In this document: piece after piece, positions 1,917 through 15,801 of the stretch | Layout: the number at the start of each line of letters is the position of its first letter | How positions within the stretch are numbered: the stretch's first letter is position 1 | From: Vulcanisaeta distributa DSM 14429 | GTDB taxonomy: Archaea; Thermoproteota; Thermoprotei; Thermoproteales; Thermocladiaceae | Direction of reading: 5' to 3' | Length of the DNA: 32,000 bases | Assembly (NCBI RefSeq): GCF_000148385.1 | Contig: NC_014537.1 | Location: 2,220,001 to 2,252,000 of the forward strand | The notes under the pieces: model-generated | Database searches by the model: none | Told to the model about the DNA's origin: nothing | The model's input: only the letters and a program-made list of their open reading frames with translations | Program-made: the position numbers and the translations under genes

Positions 1917-2702
1917 TCATCGCCTCAAATCATTAATTATTAACTCAGCAACCCTCTTACCACTCATTATCATTGAACCGAATATAGGCCCCATCCTCGG
2001 TAATCCATACACGGCAGCAACTGCCATACCAGTCACGTAAAGCCCCTCCATAACCCTACCCGTATACTTAACAACCAAGTCCTCAGCAACCGAGGCATGT
2101 GCCGACTTCTCGCCATGAATTGCCAAGCCAAGGTCTGGGTTCTTCCTTGTAGTCACGGCAGCTACCTCGGCATCATGGCCTGTGGCATCGACCACGGCCT
2201 TAGCCTCTATGAAGAATGGATCTGTATGAACGCCCGCCATTTGCACCGTTGACCAGTAGACCGCGAGACCAGCAACCCTGGGCGGATTATCCCTAATTAT
2301 CACATCATCTACATGAACGCCCAGGAGGAATTTAGCGCCTGCATCGATTGCCCTAACCGCAAGCTTTGCTATCATTTCGGCGGGGTCCACCGCGAACAAC
2401 CCATCACCCATGTCCTGAAGCCTAACACCAAAGTCCTTACTCAGTATATCGGAGGCTGGGTACTCAACCACTATGCTAGGTAAATGACTGGCGGCACCAC
2501 CAATACCACCACCGAAGGAGAACCTCCTCTCCAGCACAATGGTCTTTAAGCCCGCCTTAGCCAGGTAATAAGCCGCGGTCATGCCTGACGGGCCGGCACC
2601 GACAATTGCAACATCAACGCTTGAGTACTCATCAAGCATCTTCAAGGCGCTCCTCATTATTGCACGGGTAATGCTCGACTCCGAAATATATATGCCCGCC
2701 AT
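1917..2702 (-). CDS. thi4: thiazole synthase Thi4 (thiamine thiazole moiety biosynthesis)
   Basis: Contains the FAD GxGxxG motif (VAIVGAGPSGMTAAYYL) plus the VDATGHDAEV and GLPRMGPIFGSMIMSGK motifs characteristic of Thi4/THI1. Length is 261 aa. Confidence 0.9.
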   Translation of the reverse strand: MAGIYISESSITRAIMRSALKMLDEYSSVDVAIVGAGPSGMTAAYYLAKAGLKTIVLERRFSFGGGIGGAASHLPSIVVEYPASDILSKDFGVRLQDMGDGLFAVDPAEMIAKLAVRAIDAGAKFLLGVHVDDVIIRDNPPRVAGLAVYWSTVQMAGVHTDPFFIEAKAVVDATGHDAEVAAVTTRKNPDLGLAIHGEKSAHASVAEDLVVKYTGRVMEGLYVTGMAVAAVYGLPRMGPIFGSMIMSGKRVAELIINDLRR

Positions 2703-2813
2703 GTAATCACCAGGTTATTGAGCATTAATAAACAAGTTATAAACATTATGCCAAAAACTAGACAAAGCGGTTAACGGCTGTACCTTTTAAACTTTGATTC
2801 AGGAATTAATCCA

Positions 2814-3026
2814 ATGCCATTCATACTAAATAATGCGCAGGGACAATTAAGGTGCTCAAACTGCGGAAGGATAATAATTGGTCAGCCAATAGTAGTTAAG
2901 ACATGCTGTGTAAATAAGCCATGGGTTTTCTGCTCCGAGGAATGCTATAATGAATTCCTAAGAAGGTGGGTAAGGAATCAGGAACCACATAAGGGAAGGA
3001 GTTCATTAAGGAGAGATGTGTTGTAA
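2814..3026 (+). CDS. small TRASH-type cysteine-rich metal-binding protein
   Basis: The pattern C-x2-C-x22-C-x3-C (CSNC...FCSEEC) matches the TRASH-domain spacing C-x2-C-x19-22-C-x3-C. The ORF is 70 aa. Confidence 0.5.
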   Translation: MPFILNNAQGQLRCSNCGRIIIGQPIVVKTCCVNKPWVFCSEECYNEFLRRWVRNQEPHKGRSSLRRDVL

Positions 3027-3076
3027 AAATTAATCTGTCTTTTTAAGATTCAATTAAGCTAAATCACCAGGGATAA

Positions 3077-3487
3077 TCACTTAATGTCCTCTTCATTGGC
3101 TGCGTTCCTCAACTGCTCAATAAGCGTATCTATTGGGGTACCTGGCTCAACAAAGAATAATTGGATACCCATTGACGTAAAATACTCGTAACTTGTCTCA
3201 CAAGCCCCACTGGCTATTACCGCGTCAACATCCCTTAATACATTCTCATGAAGCCATTGATATTTAACGATACCATGCATTGGGATCCCTAACCTAGACA
3301 GCGCCTCATGAATCACGGTCGGATCATCAGTATCCGGGATATTACCAAGGGGGTTATCCCTACTTTCCACGAGCTTGATATCCTTAGTGTCCTCATTAAG
3401 TTCATATATTATGTATTTCTTAGCATGTGCAAAGTGACCATCGCTTATTGACTTCCCATCATCCGTAGCTATTGCAATCTTTACCAT
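3077..3487 (-). CDS. NifB/NifX-family (dinitrogenase FeMo-cofactor-binding domain-like) protein
   Basis: The N-terminus MVKIAIATDDGKSISDGHFAHAKKYIIYEL and C-terminal DAVIASGACETSYEYFTSMGIQ resemble the NifX/NifB C-terminal domain family. I chose the start at Met17 of the tracked ORF (3487) because that is where family-like sequence begins. Confidence 0.6.
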   Translation of the reverse strand: MVKIAIATDDGKSISDGHFAHAKKYIIYELNEDTKDIKLVESRDNPLGNIPDTDDPTVIHEALSRLGIPMHGIVKYQWLHENVLRDVDAVIASGACETSYEYFTSMGIQLFFVEPGTPIDTLIEQLRNAANEEDIK

Positions 3488-3610
3488 ATGACCATGACCA
3501 ATGCGATGCTTAATAAACCACTGCATTAAAGTCAAGCAAAATTAACACATTAAAACAAGCTAAACACTAATGCATCAACTTAAACAGGGTAAGGAAAACT
3601 GAACGCAAAC

Positions 3611-3688
3611 TGGCGCCCCGGCCGGGATTTGAACCCGGGTCTGCGGCTCGACAGGCCGCCATACTAGACCGGGCTATACCACCGGGGC
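3611..3688 (-). tRNA. tRNA-Asp (anticodon GTC), no intron, CCA encoded
   Basis: The reverse complement reads GCCCCGG..GCGGC-CTGTCGA-GCCGC..CCGGGTTCAAATCCCGG-CCGGGGC-G-CCA. The acceptor stem, anticodon stem-loop (GTC at 34-36) and T-arm all pair. Confidence 0.93.
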
Positions 3689-3834
3689 TACGTAGTGATT
3701 GGCTTTATTGAGAATTTAAGTTTTTTGCCCTGATTGTTTATTGGTGCTGTGTTAGGAGGTTTCTTAATGGTTATTATGAGTTTAAGTGTGGTGTTGAGTC
3801 TGTATTTCCTGTCTAATTATTGACTGAGTAAACG

Positions 3835-3843
3835 CTTTAAATT
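3835..3843 (+). promoter_or_regulatory. TATA-like box upstream of thioredoxin gene
   Basis: CTTTAAATT lies about 25 nt upstream of the ATG at 3864. The spacing fits a leaderless archaeal promoter. Confidence 0.4.
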
Positions 3844-3863
3844 GGCAGTTTCCCGCCTTAGGT

Positions 3864-4289
3864 ATGGCGGCGAGTAATATGAACAGTAATATGGGTGATA
3901 AGGAGGATGAGGAGTTGAGCAAGTTATTGGAGAAGAAGGCTAGGGAGTTAGCTAAGGCTGTGGGTAATGAGCCTGTTGAGTTGAGTGGGGATAATTTTGA
4001 TGATTTCATAAGGAGTAAGAGGGTTGTGGTTGTTGATTTCTGGGCGCCCTGGTGTGCGCCGTGTTTTCTACTTGAGCCGATCTTAAAGGCGCTGGCTAAG
4101 GAGATGCCGTGTGTTGGTTTTGGTAGGTTGAATACTCAGGAGTGGCCCGACGTTGCTGCTAAGTATGATGTGATGAGCCTACCTACTGTGATAATATTTA
4201 AGGATGGTGAGCCCGCGGATTTCGTGATTGGTGCTGTGCCTAAGAAGATAATTGCTGATAAAATAAGGAGGGTTCTTAACGAGAATTAA
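3864..4289 (+). CDS. trx: thioredoxin
   Basis: Active-site FWAPWCAPC (CxxC) followed by the thioredoxin fold pattern (YDVMSLPTVIIFKDGE). It has an acidic N-terminal extension. Confidence 0.85.
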   Translation: MAASNMNSNMGDKEDEELSKLLEKKARELAKAVGNEPVELSGDNFDDFIRSKRVVVVDFWAPWCAPCFLLEPILKALAKEMPCVGFGRLNTQEWPDVAAKYDVMSLPTVIIFKDGEPADFVIGAVPKKIIADKIRRVLNEN

Positions 4290-11153: not shown

Positions 11154-11960
11154 CTAACCTAACTTAACATCATTAACCACACCATTAACTGCAAAGTAAT
11201 ACGTATTATTTACATATGCATTAATTAATACCGTAACGTAAAAACTACCACTGAATTTCAAGCCACCATTGCATGCACCCTCTTCAGGTGATGCAAGTAA
11301 TACATAGTCTATGGTCCCCCAATAAACAGTGTAATTGCGTGTTCGTTCAATCATTCTAAAAACACCAACGTATCTAAGCGTTATATTTATGCCATGATGA
11401 TCACTGCCTACCTTACTTGCTAAATAACCATTCATGTCCTGCACAGCCTCGGTTAAGTTATTGGCGTGAATCGTTACATTTGCATCTAAACTATGGATGA
11501 CGTTATTAATTACCTGGGAGTAATAACATAAATTGAATGGATATATGACAGCGACAACACCCTCAATATCACCAGATTGCGTAATTACTTGAATAACTGC
11601 GCGATAAACGGTAGCATTACCCTCACCATAAACCTCATAATTAATCACCCTATACCTCACAATACCCCCAGTCCTATTACTAATGGTGCTGAGGACCTCA
11701 TTCAAGGTTCCAGTCAAGTTATTAGCGATAACATTGCATGAGTAGTTTATAGGATTCATAATAACTAGGCATGCATCGTTCCTTAGCATAAAGAGCAATG
11801 TATTGTTTAACTGCCTAATGACATTAACTGACAGTAGGTAAGTATTCTCGAGGGTTAACGCCTTAGATGCCTCACTGCTCACGTAGCTTATTAAGTATGT
11901 GGTCAATGTAATCATTACCAGCAATACTACGATTATGGGTAATAATGACTTGTAAATCAC
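11154..11960 (-). CDS. N-terminally membrane-anchored, probably extracellular glycoprotein (hypothetical)
   Basis: Single N-terminal hydrophobic helix (MIYKSLLPIIVVLLVMITLTTYLI). The rest is hydrophilic, with about 10 N-x-S/T sequons by hand count. Last gene of a four-ORF cluster. Confidence 0.55.
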   Translation of the reverse strand: MIYKSLLPIIVVLLVMITLTTYLISYVSSEASKALTLENTYLLSVNVIRQLNNTLLFMLRNDACLVIMNPINYSCNVIANNLTGTLNEVLSTISNRTGGIVRYRVINYEVYGEGNATVYRAVIQVITQSGDIEGVVAVIYPFNLCYYSQVINNVIHSLDANVTIHANNLTEAVQDMNGYLASKVGSDHHGINITLRYVGVFRMIERTRNYTVYWGTIDYVLLASPEEGACNGGLKFSGSFYVTVLINAYVNNTYYFAVNGVVNDVKLG

Positions 11961-11966
11961 TCACAA

Positions 11967-12275
11967 TCACCTGGCGTAAGCAACGTACACATTAACCTCC
12001 AACCTGGAATTATTAATCGCAATCCTTGGGCATATAATTAGGTAATTCTTGGTCGTTACCTCATCCGTTATTACAACATGATTTAGATTAATACTGCCCG
12101 TGAAATTACCCAGTTGGCACTCAATGAATAGGTAAGTTCCAATGGACGCTTTATAATCAATTATTGATAGCCTCAACAGGAGGTTTGTTAAGTATATCGT
12201 GAGTATGAGTATTACGATTACTAGGGTAATTGAAGCCAGTAGGTCAGGGAATATTAAGGAGTCTGCGAGAGCCAT
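11967..12275 (-). CDS. small N-terminally anchored membrane protein (hypothetical)
   Basis: 102 aa with one N-terminal TM helix (LLASITLVIVILILTIYLTNLLL). Its stop is 6 nt before the next start. Confidence 0.45.
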   Translation of the reverse strand: MALADSLIFPDLLASITLVIVILILTIYLTNLLLRLSIIDYKASIGTYLFIECQLGNFTGSINLNHVVITDEVTTKNYLIICPRIAINNSRLEVNVYVAYAR

Positions 12276-12405
12276 TGATTATCACCATGGCATAATTACT
12301 CACGGAATTCGCTAAGTAAAGTACTTTTAGTAGGAAGCTCTCGATGACTATGATCATCATGAATATGATCACCATCAATATCGCTGTGAGTAGGTACCTA
12401 ATCAT
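12244..12405 (-). CDS. small membrane protein, 53 aa (not in ORF track)
   Basis: Hand translation gives MIRYLLTAILMVIIFMMIIVIESFLLKVLYLANSVSNYAMVIINGSRRLLNIP*. Its ATG overlaps the TGA of the upstream 61-aa ORF (ATGA at 12402-12405), and its 3' end overlaps the next ORF by 32 nt. Confidence 0.3.
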   Translation of the reverse strand: MIRYLLTAILMVIIFMMIIVIESFLLKVLYLANSVSNYAMVIINGSRRLLNIP

Positions 12406-12587
12406 CTAATCACCGAGTTGATCCATTGAATAATTGAATTAAGCTCTCGAATAAGCCCTATATTATTCCTTAATAACTCTACATATAATGAGATGGTGAT
12501 AATCGAGAGTATCGCTGAAATTGCCGTGAGTATTAGTGATCCATATTCCTGGAATAGAATGTTCAATACCTCCTCAAGGGACTTCAC
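12402..12587 (-). CDS. small membrane protein, 61 aa (hypothetical)
   Basis: GTG start and one TM helix (SLILTAISAILSIITISLYV). Has its own TATA-like box about 24 nt upstream. Confidence 0.4.
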   Translation of the reverse strand: MKSLEEVLNILFQEYGSLILTAISAILSIITISLYVELLRNNIGLIRELNSIIQWINSVIR

Positions 12588-12631: not shown

Positions 12632-15600
12632 TCACTGAGAGAATAAACGTGTACTGCTGATTACGTGGCTTATTAATCGCCTCACCTCATCAGCCAGGTA
12701 CCTCCTACACTCAACCTCAAGTACCTCACCCTTAACATGCCTCTCCTCACTAAGTGCCTCCTCAATGGTATTTCTCGTAATTACCTCGTAAACCCTCGCC
12801 TCAACCTTACCATCACTAGCCCTAACCACACGACCTACCCTCTGAATCATCTGTCTCTGAGAGCCTGTTCCAGAAAGTATTATCGCCACATCCGCATCCG
12901 GCACATCAATACCCTCATCAAGGACTGTGGTCGCCACGATAACCTTATACACACCCCTAGCAAATGCCTTAAAAATCGAGTCTCTATCACTAGTCTTAGA
13001 CGTTATTAACGCGACGATGGGTCCCAACTCCTCCTTAAGGACCTTATACAACTCCTCGGCCTGCCTTATGAATTGAGTAAAAACGATGATCTTACTACCA
13101 ATGCCAACCTCAGCCTTCACTATTTCCTTAGCAATGCCTATCTTGGCACTAGCCATACTCGCTATATTCCTTAGGACAATCGCATTATCACCAGCCCTCT
13201 CATAACTCCTCCTCTCCTCAGGTGTTAAGTCAACGTAGATCCTAAAGTGCCTAACAGGAACAACCAATTTAGCTTCAATCATGTCCCTATAATCAGCCTG
13301 GTAAACAATATCACCGGCGCTTAGGAATATCAAGTGCTCATTATTATCACTCCTTTTCGGTGTAGCGGACAATGCCAACCTAAAGGGTGCCCTAAGCTTA
13401 AACGCAACCTCCTTAAACGTATCGGCAGGAACGTGGTGGCAATTATGCACTATGACTCCATTAGCTACGAAACTATGGTCTTCCTCTACCTCAATATCGT
13501 AGACAAATTCTTCTTCCCTGGAAATGCCTCTAGGGCTATTGGCTTGATTAATTCCAGGAATTTCTCTGCTTCCCTCATGTTTAGCGTATAGAGGAGGTAA
13601 TAATCGCGATAATGCGTTATGCCGAATACTACTCCCCATTTCTCCCTCAACCACTGCGCCAGCATTTTGTTCCCCTCCAATGTAAAATTCTCCGTGTGTA
13701 ATTGTATTGCGTAATAATCCCTCCCCTTCTCTAGGCTTATTGATCCATCGTCCAGAAACCAAACTGCTAACGCTATCGGCGTCTTTATCATACCCAGAAG
13801 TTCCTTGGTGACTGTCTTCCTCCCGTTTATGTATGATGCCTTGTATATCTCCGTTAGCTCCGGATGGCATATTGTATGGAATCTTACCACGTCTCCATAC
13901 GCTCCATACTTCATCATCCTTATGACCTTTGGCGGTGTCCTTACTATATTCTTTAGCTCTGAGTATTTCCACATTAAGTACTCGTACTGGTCTAAAGAGT
14001 GTGTCACTGTTAATCTCGCGTTTTTCGCCCTGGGTGGCGGAATTGTTAAATACCCATCCCCAAGCACCATGCCCAGGACTATCTCCCTCTATCTCTCTGT
14101 CAATTTTGGTAATGATGCTAACCTCCTCAATTCCCTTTCCTGCACTATTTTCCTTATCTGCTGTATTCCCACCTCTTTGTATAAAGTCCATCGCTTTAAT
14201 GATCTTCGTCTCTGAAGTTCTGGGTTGTGAGCAGTTACATAATGACACCCTAAAGCCTGAAGCGTTGGAAATTCCTTTCCGCAGATTCTGCACCTGTACG
14301 TCATAGAAATACAGCACGTCCCCGCTTCTTAAGGTTATTGCAGGCTTCCAACCATCCTGAGTGAGAATTAGGTGATCCTCCGTCACCACTAATTCGCCTT
14401 TCTCGTGAGTTATCCTCACCATCCTCTTAATGAGTGGTATTTTGAAGTAGTTCGTTATTCGCATAAACCTGCCTTTATGGGTAAGCACCCTCACGGGTAG
14501 TCTCTTCTCCACTATCTCTCCAATGGGCATTAACCCCATATCAGTAACAATCAATGCATCATATGGTAAGCACTCATCGAATACCACCATATCGAACTTA
14601 TCACTTATCTCCGCTATCCTGTTAACGGCTGAGTTGTAGATCGCCACCGTGACCTCCCTAATATCGTCATAACCACCGCCCAACCTACCTGCCCTAATGC
14701 CTAAGTACTTCATTATTCTTTCGTACCATTGATTCATAAGTTCTTCTGTGATTACGAGTATTATCGTCGGCACCCTCGCCGTGGCCAGGGCCTTGAGGGC
14801 TATGAATGTCTTACCGCCGCCTGTTGGTACGACAATCGTACCCCTCTTACCGGCCCTTAACCAGGCATCGAGAGCTCTCTCCTGGAAGGGTAGGAGCTTC
14901 ACCTCATCCTTAGGGACCTGTATCTGCCTTGGGCTCCATTGTAGGTCAGTCACTTTATAACCGCTCTTTACCAGTAATTCCCTTACGGTATCCCTTAGAA
15001 ATACTGGGAACCTAATTATGACCTTTTCACTTTCTCGAATAATATCGTCCTTACGTATGAGCCTCAAATCACGCTTATTCAGGTTACCCTCCTTATCAGT
15101 GACATAGTACGGTATGGTTAAGCTCCTCAACTTCTCATAGAGCTCCTTAGATAGAAAGTGCAGCTCAGCACTATCAAGGCCGAGCTTAACTGTCCACCAC
15201 TCAATCCTCCTACTAAATAAATCCCTCAACTTATTATTAGCTAGGGCGAACTCCCGAGCCCTCCTAAGGGCAAGCTCCACATCACCAATCACTGGCTTAC
15301 CAACGAGTAACTGCCTAATGCTCTCCACAGCCTTATCAACATACTCCTCAAATGAGGACGCACTACCTATGTAATTTCTATCGCTCCTAATGAAGTCCCT
15401 TATTAGGCATGACAGTGAGATAATGTATAAGCCACCCTCCTCACCCAACACGCAGTCGCTTGGTATAGAACCGAGACTTCCCAAGTCCTCAACGCCAATT
15501 ACGCCGCCTGACGAGTTTACGAGTATAGTCCTCATTAATTTCTCGGTCTCCTCACTGGTCAGCTCAAGTAATTCCTTCAACTCCCTAATCAACGAGAGTG

Positions 15601-15739
15601 AGTAAACCTTGCCGGACCAGTACTCACCATTCCACCTGAACCCTAGCTCCTTCAATCTATCCTTAACTCTTGCTATCCTATCCCACGGCCACTCCCTCCT
15701 AATCTCAACATTGCCGTTCACAATTACCCTAAAGAGCAC
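12632..15739 (-). CDS. SF2 DNA helicase, COG1061/SSL2 (XPB/Rad25-related), interrupted by an intein
   Basis: Motif I VVPTGGGKTF; motif II VVFDE|CHH split by the intein; motif III ALSATP; C-terminal core TTVLDEGIDVPDADVAIILSGTGSQRQMIQRVGRVVR, very like XPB motifs V-VI. No RED motif follows motif III, and an N-terminal region of about 280 aa is unassigned. The extein totals 658 aa. Confidence 0.9.
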   Translation of the reverse strand: MLFRVIVNGNVEIRREWPWDRIARVKDRLKELGFRWNGEYWSGKVYSLSLIRELKELLELTSEETEKLMRTILVNSSGGVIGVEDLGSLGSIPSDCVLGEEGGLYIISLSCLIRDFIRSDRNYIGSASSFEEYVDKAVESIRQLLVGKPVIGDVELALRRAREFALANNKLRDLFSRRIEWWTVKLGLDSAELHFLSKELYEKLRSLTIPYYVTDKEGNLNKRDLRLIRKDDIIRESEKVIIRFPVFLRDTVRELLVKSGYKVTDLQWSPRQIQVPKDEVKLLPFQERALDAWLRAGKRGTIVVPTGGGKTFIALKALATARVPTIILVITEELMNQWYERIMKYLGIRAGRLGGGYDDIREVTVAIYNSAVNRIAEISDKFDMVVFDECLPYDALIVTDMGLMPIGEIVEKRLPVRVLTHKGRFMRITNYFKIPLIKRMVRITHEKGELVVTEDHLILTQDGWKPAITLRSGDVLYFYDVQVQNLRKGISNASGFRVSLCNCSQPRTSETKIIKAMDFIQRGGNTADKENSAGKGIEEVSIITKIDREIEGDSPGHGAWGWVFNNSATQGEKREINSDTLFRPVRVLNVEILRAKEYSKDTAKGHKDDEVWSVWRRGKIPYNMPSGANGDIQGIIHKREEDSHQGTSGYDKDADSVSSLVSGRWINKPREGEGLLRNTITHGEFYIGGEQNAGAVVEGEMGSSIRHNALSRLLPPLYAKHEGSREIPGINQANSPRGISREEEFVYDIEVEEDHSFVANGVIVHNCHHVPADTFKEVAFKLRAPFRLALSATPKRSDNNEHLIFLSAGDIVYQADYRDMIEAKLVVPVRHFRIYVDLTPEERRSYERAGDNAIVLRNIASMASAKIGIAKEIVKAEVGIGSKIIVFTQFIRQAEELYKVLKEELGPIVALITSKTSDRDSIFKAFARGVYKVIVATTVLDEGIDVPDADVAIILSGTGSQRQMIQRVGRVVRASDGKVEARVYEVITRNTIEEALSEERHVKGEVLEVECRRYLADEVRRLISHVISSTRLFSQ
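13486..14070 (-). CDS. LAGLIDADG (double-motif) homing endonuclease ORF in the +1 frame relative to the intein/helicase frame
   Basis: Two LAGLIDADG motifs (..LGMVLGDGYL and LAVWFLDDGSI) spaced about 100 aa apart, as in monomeric enzymes such as I-DmoI. The frame offset was computed from coordinates: (15739-14070) mod 3 = 1. Confidence 0.75.
   Translation of the reverse strand: MVLGDGYLTIPPPRAKNARLTVTHSLDQYEYLMWKYSELKNIVRTPPKVIRMMKYGAYGDVVRFHTICHPELTEIYKASYINGRKTVTKELLGMIKTPIALAVWFLDDGSISLEKGRDYYAIQLHTENFTLEGNKMLAQWLREKWGVVFGITHYRDYYLLYTLNMREAEKFLELIKPIALEAFPGKKNLSTILR
14089..14304 (-). CDS. C2H2 zinc-finger ORF (71 aa), same +1 frame, immediately upstream of the LAGLIDADG ORF
   Basis: CRICGKEFPTLQALGCHYVTAH equals C-x2-C-x12-H-x4-H, followed by a basic tail. 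The ATG begins 1 nt into the codon after the Hint N-lobe (..YFY|D). It is separated from the endonuclease ORF by one TAG plus 6 codons. Confidence 0.55.
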   Translation of the reverse strand: MTYRCRICGKEFPTLQALGCHYVTAHNPELQRRRSLKRWTLYKEVGIQQIRKIVQERELRRLASLPKLTER

Positions 15740-15801
15740 TAACCATGTACTACCTAGTACAGTACTTAAAGCTTACAAAGGCTTTAATTCCATAATCCTT
15801 A

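Follow-up and report, generated by a model that had tools for sequence, protein, structure and literature searches.

The window analysed here is a 32,000-nucleotide stretch of the genome of the archaeon Vulcanisaeta distributa DSM 14429 (NC_014537.1, positions 2,220,001 to 2,252,000), and positions are given in its own numbering. At 12632..15739 it carries a gene for an XPB/Rad25-like superfamily 2 helicase, with Pfam matches to ResIII, Helicase_C and ERCC3_RAD25_C; this gene and all features described within it are on the minus strand. The gene encodes a precursor open reading frame (ORF) of 1035 amino acids (aa) and is the host of a 377 aa intein (precursor residues 390-766, 13442..14572), which interrupts helicase motif II and divides the protein into an N-extein (15739-14573) and a C-extein (13441-12632). 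The splicing (Hint) domain of the intein is in the helicase frame, here called frame 0 or the host frame. The homing endonuclease is encoded in the +1 frame of the same strand, in an ORF of 272 codons plus a stop codon (13486..14304), across which frame 0 stays open.

The intein junctions read FDE|CLPYD...VIVHN|CHH and lie within motif II. All hallmarks of a class 1 Hint domain are present: C1, the TxxH of block B (T64-E-D-H67), a terminal ...VHN377 and a cysteine at the +1 position. The residues C1, T64-E-D-H67, D359, H366 and N377 are invariant in an alignment of 14 sequences. PF14890 (Intein_splicing) is the only frame-0 Pfam match within the intein (44 bits, cutoff 35.8), and the isolated frame-0 linker between the Hint lobes gives zero Pfam matches.

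The structure of the frame-0 product was predicted by AlphaFold2 with the 14-sequence alignment. The N-terminal Hint lobe, which comprises blocks A and B (intein residues 1-95, 14288..14572), is assigned from predicted local distance difference test (pLDDT) values of 93-97, from Foldseek and from its position-3 substitutions; values above 90 run from residue 1 to about 92. The C-terminal lobe contains blocks F and G (13442..13519, ending ...FVYDIEVEEDHSFVANGVIVHN), it includes invariant residues and has a pLDDT of 77-95 (residues 352-377). Two spacers with a pLDDT below 50 are predicted to be disordered, spacer 1 at intein residues 96-190 (14003..14287, no Pfam match) and spacer 2 at residues 208-351 (13520..13951). 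Between them is a predicted beta-strand, FRPVRVLNVEIL, at residues 193-204 (13961..13996, pLDDT about 92; mean of 92 for the block 191-200). In Foldseek the ordered core matches solved mini-inteins, namely that of Mtu RecA (2in0, TMt 0.60) and those of gp41-1 and Spl DnaX (TMt about 0.6).

Spacer 1 overlaps, in the +1 frame, a zinc finger and the first LAGLIDADG helix, and spacer 2 overlaps the core of the endonuclease. The LAGLIDADG_2 family (PF03161) matches this frame with an E-value of 1.8e-34. The C2H2 zinc finger (CRICGKEFPTLQALGCHYVTAH, 14227..14292) matches zf-C2H2_6 (PF13912) at 28.4 bits against a cutoff of 25 and satisfies the pattern CX2C...HX4H (CRIC...HYVTAH). LAGLIDADG motif 1 (REIVLGMVLGDGYL, 14047..14088) aligns to the GIGLILGDAYI region of I-SceI and motif 2 (ALAVWFLDDGSI, 13738..13773) to its LAYWFMDDGG, and the acidic cores of the two motifs, VLGDG and FLDDG, are found in one chain. 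Similarity to I-SceI (E 1e-9) covers endonuclease residues 64-258, which include both LAGLIDADG motifs and the start of a C-terminal PxxxPxMxYK-like region; the zinc finger is an N-terminal addition relative to this I-SceI-like part. The ORF contains an internal TAG at codon 72 (14089..14091) and ends with a TAG at 13488-13486, inside block F. An initial annotation, made from the sequence alone, had placed the Hint domain in the helicase frame and the LAGLIDADG and zf-C2H2 domains in the +1 frame, and the Pfam searches of each frame (PF14890 against PF03161 and PF13912) agree with this.

The nearest endonuclease relatives outside inteins are 28-50% identical over the best segment and occur mostly in Patescibacteria and other bacteria. 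For the four nearest that were checked the location is in or next to a bacterial 23S rRNA gene, in two cases (L006 and L008) clearly inside an insertion, and an Rfam scan of these four loci found a group I intron also present at two. Some lineages have two zinc fingers or an additional C-terminal zinc ribbon. In L070 and L071 there is an extra C-terminal CxxC...CxxC zinc-ribbon extension, and motif 2 contains MMDG. In L063 motif 2 is LDNG, where the acidic residue ahead of the glycine is replaced; judged from this motif, the L063 enzyme may be a nickase or inactive.

Over 14304-13486 the helicase frame has no stops, the +1 frame has its one internal TAG and its terminal TAG, and the third frame has 39. 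These coordinates and counts came out the same on recomputation as in the initial annotation, and its claim that the open frame 0 is beyond chance is upheld by permutation, which expects 7.4-15.4 stops where none is observed. Codon shuffling of the +1 ORF gives 10.5 +/- 2.6 host-frame stops, and zero was reached in 0 of 20000 shuffles. Synonymous resampling with the codon usage of the window gives 15.4, and the strictest permutation, which keeps both the protein and its own codon usage, gives 7.4. Among 18 real ORFs of the window, stops in the same relative frame number 4.9-14.9 per 100 codons, and the longest open run is 89 codons against the 273 found here. Intact endonuclease relatives outside inteins served as a control: their equivalent -1 frame is open in none of the 49 and contains a median of 7.6 stops per 100 codons (range 0.5-14.1). 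One of these relatives, with 60% GC, has just one stop in the equivalent frame.

The way in which host-frame stops are avoided is specific to context. Across 11 intein lineages, a T at the third position of an endonuclease codon is never followed by a codon beginning AA, AG or GA (0 of 888), and it is found at 614 of 2222 such positions elsewhere (27.6%, Fisher 8e-103). The corresponding values of C/(C+T) are 1.00 and 0.35. A third-position change from T to C is silent in two-fold NNY codons and in all four-fold families (NNT and NNC), so the genetic code should allow host-frame stops in this register to be removed largely without change to the endonuclease. This silent T-to-C escape plausibly explains why the +1 register persists, and it suggests that the layout would become established most easily in a GC-rich background.

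Comparison with a syntenic locus (L001) in a Vulcanisaeta metagenome-assembled genome (MAG) separates the constraints on the two frames. Differences at the three frame-0 codon positions are 0.16/0.10/0.45 in the N-extein, 0.06/0.04/0.33 in the C-extein and 0.11/0.06/0.51 in the Hint N lobe. In the linker they are 0.44/0.19/0.17, a pattern in which the changes fall on the third position of the endonuclease codons. The exteins and Hint lobes thus show the usual position-3 excess, and the C-extein is more similar in amino acids (93% identity) than in nucleotides (86%); from these substitutions the exteins are under strong purifying selection. Amino-acid identity is 72% for the endonuclease and 47% for the frame-0 linker. 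The initial annotation had suggested selection on both frames. The substitution pattern indicates that amino-acid constraint acts on the endonuclease frame, and that what is demanded of the host frame is essentially no more than freedom from stops. Selection for hydrophilic spacers was also considered and rejected, as synonymous permutation in four lineages gave z values of +0.4 to -2.7, and hydrophilicity is mostly a by-product of the endonuclease sequence.

The arrangement is not confined to the window. At L001 the helicase ORF of 1042 aa is open through the intein, and its +1 frame contains an intact 270 aa endonuclease ORF (P0001), which is 72% identical to the +1 protein of the window. 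Intact +1 zinc-finger-LAGLIDADG ORFs with no host-frame stops are also found at L002, L003 and L005, the last from an Archaeoglobaceae MAG, in helicases that are only 31-38% identical overall to that of the window. A census of metagenomes added 14 further full-length members. The hidden Markov model (HMM) of the endonuclease matches these only in the +1 frame (E 1e-63 to 1e-128), and they have no host-frame stops where codon shuffling expects 11-23 in each. Altogether about 11 divergent archaeal lineages have the +1 arrangement, including Vulcanisaeta, the Archaeoglobaceae MAG and unclassified metagenome contigs, and none of them has an in-frame copy of the endonuclease. The +1 ORF is intact at L001, L002, L003, L005, L063, L067, L069 and L070. 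In the Caldivirga-like L004 the +1 frame has decayed, with 24 stops, and the host frame is still open. The Logan assembly of SRR060023 (L139), which is independent, is identical to the window over all 3090 nucleotides (nt) of the gene, the internal TAG included. We conclude that the arrangement is real, conserved and selected, and is the result of neither error nor chance.

The alleles at this insertion site form a series that includes intein-free, mini-intein, deletion, decayed and full-length forms. The intein-free alleles P0010-P0012 and P0014 encode helicases of 657-658 aa with a contiguous ...IFDEAHHVPAD... at the site. Mini-inteins at the site are 133-144 aa, and deletion derivatives are represented by P0008, P0009, P0017 (Caldivirga maquilingensis) and P0018. 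Spacer 1 is shortened or lost in the deletion derivatives; P0008 and P0009 lack spacer 2, and P0017 retains only part of it. Long inteins with what appears to be a motif-less linker are also found in helicases only 30-40% identical to that of the window. Lineages that share 27-61% identity in their exteins share 52-72% in their Hint lobes, and for exteins at 27-50% the lobes are at 53-68%. Intein-free alleles coexist with the intein within Vulcanisaeta; both observations are consistent with horizontal spread.

Motif II is DEAHH in the intein-free alleles and is expected to be DECHH after splicing, as the +1 nucleophile is a cysteine in place of the alanine. A further allele, P0020 (983 aa, ENA), contains a different and unrelated intein at the identical DE|CHH site, with a weak in-frame match to LAGLIDADG_3, so no fewer than two intein lineages target this site.

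The linker had been described as motif-less in the initial annotation. It is indeed predicted to be mostly disordered and has no Pfam match, but residues 193-204 resemble a canonical Hint strand. A virtual mini-intein made of the N lobe, this strand and blocks F and G aligns contiguously to the Mtu RecA mini-intein, and RPVRVLNVEIL lies opposite RYSVIREVL, the Mtu RecA strand that precedes block F. The DNA of the strand (13989-13963) encodes QYEYLMWKY in the +1 frame, a conserved endonuclease segment that is also found in the distant P0005. The segment is kept in P0008, P0009, P0015/L004, P0017 and P0018, and partly in P0040 and P0046, although the endonuclease is gone or decayed in them; P0013, P0042 and P0043 have other sequence at this position. 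The model and alignment make it probable that residues 193-204 are the canonical Hint strand before block F, and the linker would then consist of two spacers around a functional, dual-coded strand.

We interpret the locus as a non-canonical intein in which the Hint domain occupies the helicase frame and an endonuclease gene of free-standing type occupies the +1 frame between the N lobe and block F, and we regard this reading as very probable. The comparative data bear out the core of the initial annotation, in which the endonuclease gene is overprinted, the host frame is kept open and the endonuclease is separate. The helicase mRNA would be read in frame 0 through the intein, giving the N lobe, a disordered spacer of about 95 aa, the beta-strand, a disordered spacer of about 144 aa and blocks F and G. 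The Hint fold would assemble across the spacers, the 377 aa intein would be spliced out and motif II would be restored as DECHH. Splicing competence is suggested by the invariant catalytic residues, the confidently predicted Hint core and the purifying selection on the exteins. Internal initiation at a start codon of its own would yield the endonuclease as a separate product, and this enzyme would cut intein-free DEAHH alleles, leading to homing; the sporadic distribution of the intein and the greater conservation of the Hint lobes than of the exteins are indirect signs of such cleavage and homing. A host-frame stop would destroy the helicase, and selection would thus exclude a position-3 T in the endonuclease when the next codon begins AA, AG or GA. 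As T-to-C changes are silent in two-fold NNY codons, the +1 register would be cheap to maintain. The window copy, with its nonsense codon, is probably a fixed post-homing allele in which decay is beginning.

Internal initiation is favoured by the placement of start codons. In most lineages an ATG is found 2-9 codons after the preceding +1 stop, and in 9 of the 11 zinc-finger-bearing lineages it comes just after this upstream stop. Upstream of the endonuclease start is an A/T-rich TTAA element near -28, together with GGAG and GAGGTGAT-like strings that arise from the Hint "GD(V/E)" codons.

Several observations weigh against parts of this interpretation. The promoter-like and Shine-Dalgarno-like signals just described are at most suggestive, because they are inseparable from the frame-0 coding constraints. 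Internal initiation is not obviously available everywhere, as L062 and L068 lack an ATG, GTG or TTG from the upstream +1 stop to the first zinc-finger cysteine. The hydrophobic pattern of the embedded strand is largely forced by the conserved endonuclease motif: from the genetic code, Q-Y-E-Y-x-M-W-K-Y imposes [V/I]-R-[V/I]-x-x-V-E-[V/I] on frame 0 whatever synonymous codons are chosen, and synonymous-site analysis cannot separate the two constraints. Endonuclease activity is not universal, since the window copy has a premature TAG and stops are also carried by L059 (Vulcanisaeta), L064 and L110. The endonuclease of the window is therefore not an uninterrupted ORF. The counterpart of its codon 72 is glutamine in the Vulcanisaeta relatives L001 and L059, and the residual ATG-initiated ORF (14070..13486) would start at MVLGDG. 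This copy is probably inactive, because the residual ORF would be without the REIVLG start of LAGLIDADG motif 1. The stops in the four endonucleases fit the decay phase of a homing cycle during which the host frame is still protected.

The two lineages without a usual start codon, L062 (Ga0315279_10000713) and L068 (Ga0315280_10022299), are metagenome contigs in which ATC follows AAGGAGAT after an interval of 9 nt, an arrangement that suggests near-cognate initiation or frameshift-dependent expression.

Other explanations of the layout were weighed. Two compensating sequencing or assembly indels could have displaced a normal in-frame endonuclease domain, and a lone genome could not exclude this. 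The same layout in about 11 divergent lineages from independent projects refutes it; the SRR060023 assembly is identical, and a shifted frame would hold about 10-16 stops. The initial annotation had raised this caveat itself, although it found simple indels hard to square with the stop counts, and it would have been contradicted by orthologues with frame-0 stops across the segment, of which the full-length members show none; an artefact is now extremely improbable. The helicase might alternatively be a dead gene whose open frame is a short-lived relic, for which the nonsense codon in the window endonuclease could be cited. This is very unlikely, as every lineage keeps its host frame open and strong purifying selection acts on the exteins, with the differences in the highly similar C-extein (93% aa, 86% nt identity) falling at position 3. 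Programmed ribosomal frameshifting, with a +1 shift after the N lobe and a return before block F, would produce a canonical intein for which the open frame 0 is irrelevant. L062 and L068, with no canonical start ahead of the zinc finger, could be accommodated in this way. Frameshifting leaves unexplained the absolute lack of host-frame stops and the avoidance of T. In most lineages the +1 frame is closed by stops located 2-9 codons ahead of the start, and its terminal stop falls inside block F. The product of such frameshifting would also be without the Hint strand, which is present only in frame 0, and we find this explanation hardly credible. A simpler use of frameshifting, in which the endonuclease is made as a +1 fusion to the N-extein and Hint N lobe and not by internal initiation, would likewise suit L062 and L068, and also L067, where about 60 codons of the +1 frame upstream are free of stops. 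The ATG just after the upstream +1 stop in nine lineages, the calling of P0001 as a stand-alone gene of 270 aa and the lack of an identified slippery motif make it unlikely.

The origin of the overlap can be considered separately. An ancestral in-frame endonuclease domain could have been moved to the +1 frame by an ancient pair of compensating frameshifts, in place of the invasion of a mini-intein. The ORF occupies the usual endonuclease slot, no ancestral mini-intein was identified, and the mini-inteins that were found resemble deletion derivatives. Against this, the enzyme is of the LAGLIDADG_2/I-SceI type with its nearest relatives in rRNA introns and is not of the intein-type LAGLIDADG_3, the gene comes with a start and a stop of its own and with an added zinc finger, and no member of the family has the endonuclease in frame. 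A shifted frame would moreover carry about 10 or more stops at once. We consider this origin rather unlikely and favour the invasion of a mini-intein by a separate gene. The arrangement had been likened in the initial annotation to the proposed intermediate of such an invasion. It is not a transient one, as the layout is common to all full-length members found, in very divergent hosts.

Out-of-frame endonuclease genes in inteins have been described, contrary to the impression in the initial annotation that the arrangement was without precedent; out-of-frame or antisense genes are known in cyanobacterial dnaX and in actinophage inteins. The cyanobacterial dnaX intein has an out-of-frame LAGLIDADG homing endonuclease (Phillips, DeSimone & Gogarten, bioRxiv 10.64898/2026.09.14.751524), which, as cited in that preprint, was first proposed by Gorbalenya (1998). 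The present intein resembles it in the same-strand overlapping LAGLIDADG ORF between the splicing lobes, in the disordered in-frame linker, in purifying selection in the endonuclease frame and in the coexistence of mini-intein and intein-free alleles. Secondary invasion of a mini-intein is the proposed origin in both. The two enzymes are likened here by architecture and not by sequence homology. The present host differs in being archaeal and an XPB-like helicase, and the enzyme in being I-SceI-like with an N-terminal C2H2 zinc finger. A probable Hint strand also lies inside the present overlap, which gives two host-frame spacers and not one.

Non-canonical inteins of actinobacteriophages contain endonuclease genes that are off-frame or antisense (Gosselin, Arsenault & Gogarten, bioRxiv 10.1101/2025.01.02.630785). 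As here, the in-frame product of the overlap is without recognisable structure, and its authors propose invasion by a free-standing endonuclease gene. The enzymes differ, being endonuclease VII-like (frame 3), antisense LAGLIDADG or antisense VSR-like, and so do the hosts, which are phage terminase, capsid, polymerase and ThyX genes; there is no archaeal case and no sense-strand LAGLIDADG among them. The ShiLan-type hidden HNH insertions of phage methylases (Arsenault et al., Genes 2025, PMC11855218) also have an out-of-frame endonuclease ORF within an insertion that lacks host-frame stops. No splicing domain was detected in them and the insertion is thought to be retained in the protein, whereas the present overlap is flanked by a complete Hint domain.

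With canonical bifunctional inteins such as PI-SceI and Mtu RecA the present intein shares the class 1 Hint domain, C1, TxxH, the terminal HN and the cysteine at +1, insertion in a conserved catalytic motif of a nucleic-acid enzyme, and endonuclease coding between blocks B and F. In those inteins the endonuclease is in frame with the Hint domain. The present endonuclease lies outside the intein polypeptide, as HMM matches are found only in the +1 frame in all members, it belongs to LAGLIDADG_2 and not LAGLIDADG_3, and the present strand is separated from block F by 144 residues. Like I-SceI and the enzymes of rRNA group I introns it has similarity across both LAGLIDADG motifs, and the relatives closest to it come from insertions in bacterial 23S rRNA. 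Unlike those genes, it is found in an intein and not an intron, has an added zinc finger and has a -1 frame kept stop-free. The features of the out-of-frame-endonuclease inteins, an ORF in another frame between the splicing blocks, an open host frame that lacks a recognisable domain, and purifying selection that acts across the overlap on the endonuclease frame and not on the host frame, are all found here, and only the embedded strand departs from them. The archaeal case joins this known, rare architecture and is not a new category; the interlocked strand is possibly one new twist. No archaeal report of an out-of-frame-endonuclease intein was found in the literature searched, a search to which most subscription journals were out of reach.

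The recently recognised out-of-frame architecture now extends to Archaea, with an unusually clean comparative series in which every allele type is present at one site and with a simple genetic-code account of why the +1 register is sustainable. In annotations such inteins are mistaken for decaying inteins or for mini-inteins whose linker is junk, and the endonuclease gene usually goes uncalled; only one homologue in the family carried a name ("C2H2 zinc finger protein"). The context-specific exclusion of T at position 3 is a quantitative signature that could serve to screen for further cases. The family offers an experimentally testable setting for an old question, namely how splicing domains came to be joined with homing endonucleases.

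A bolder proposal, on which we remain slightly on the doubtful side, is that the endonuclease gene and the intein are interlocked, with an alternative frame of the invading I-SceI-like gene co-opted as a Hint beta-strand, and that +1 overprinting is a general, under-annotated route of colonisation. The +1 route would be favoured because host-frame stops are removable largely by silent T-to-C changes. If true, the interlocking would be a genuinely dual-functional coding stretch that is stable across archaeal phyla, and it would limit how the endonuclease gene can be deleted; most deletion derivatives keep the strand segment. The wider claim, on how free-standing endonuclease genes come to settle in inteins, would draw on the +1 DUF559 cases described below as well.

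Two more distant inteins were found with the same Hint alignment, at L091 1501-2820 (Ga0247837_1000398) and L083 1501-2664 (JAABUJ010002832.1). They have no in-frame nuclease, and their +1 frame encodes multiple CxxC zinc ribbons and a DUF559/Vsr-like endonuclease (PF04480, E 1e-13 and 3e-10 respectively) while the host frame is open. Their high GC content (58-64%) makes the open host frames less significant. With these two inteins, the +1 register would house a second family of nucleases. In L089 the DUF559 domain is in frame.

The proteins P0002-P0004, annotated as "RecA" by JGI and 30-35% identical to the endonuclease of the window, were considered as a second case in RecA inteins. This was rejected for P0002: its locus L140 (JGI Ga0590896_0381470, 933 nt) lacks a Hint domain and is interrupted by stops in every other frame, which makes P0002 a free-standing gene. 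The only ORF of L140 is this free-standing LAGLIDADG_2 ORF. About 130 nt of sequence recur at both ends of the contig, as might be seen if the element is circular or in tandem, or if the assembly is at fault.

Four small, very hydrophobic ORFs of 61, 53, 102 and 268 aa (11154-12587, minus strand) follow immediately downstream of the helicase gene of the window, and ORFs of 61, 102 and 266 aa occupy the matching position in L001; they could be pilin-like or membrane-protein-like. Upstream, a gap of about 60 nt (15740-15801) separates the helicase from a PGI/SIS gene. The same interval in L001 holds a 551 aa ORF (2471-4126, minus strand), which has an N-terminal hydrophobic segment and no Pfam match, and beside it a spacer of about 400 nt. 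In L002 (JGI Ga0072504_120971) a Cas12f1-like TNB (TnpB-type) gene at 52-1146 lies about 350 nt upstream of the intein-bearing helicase, with a 55 aa ORF between them.

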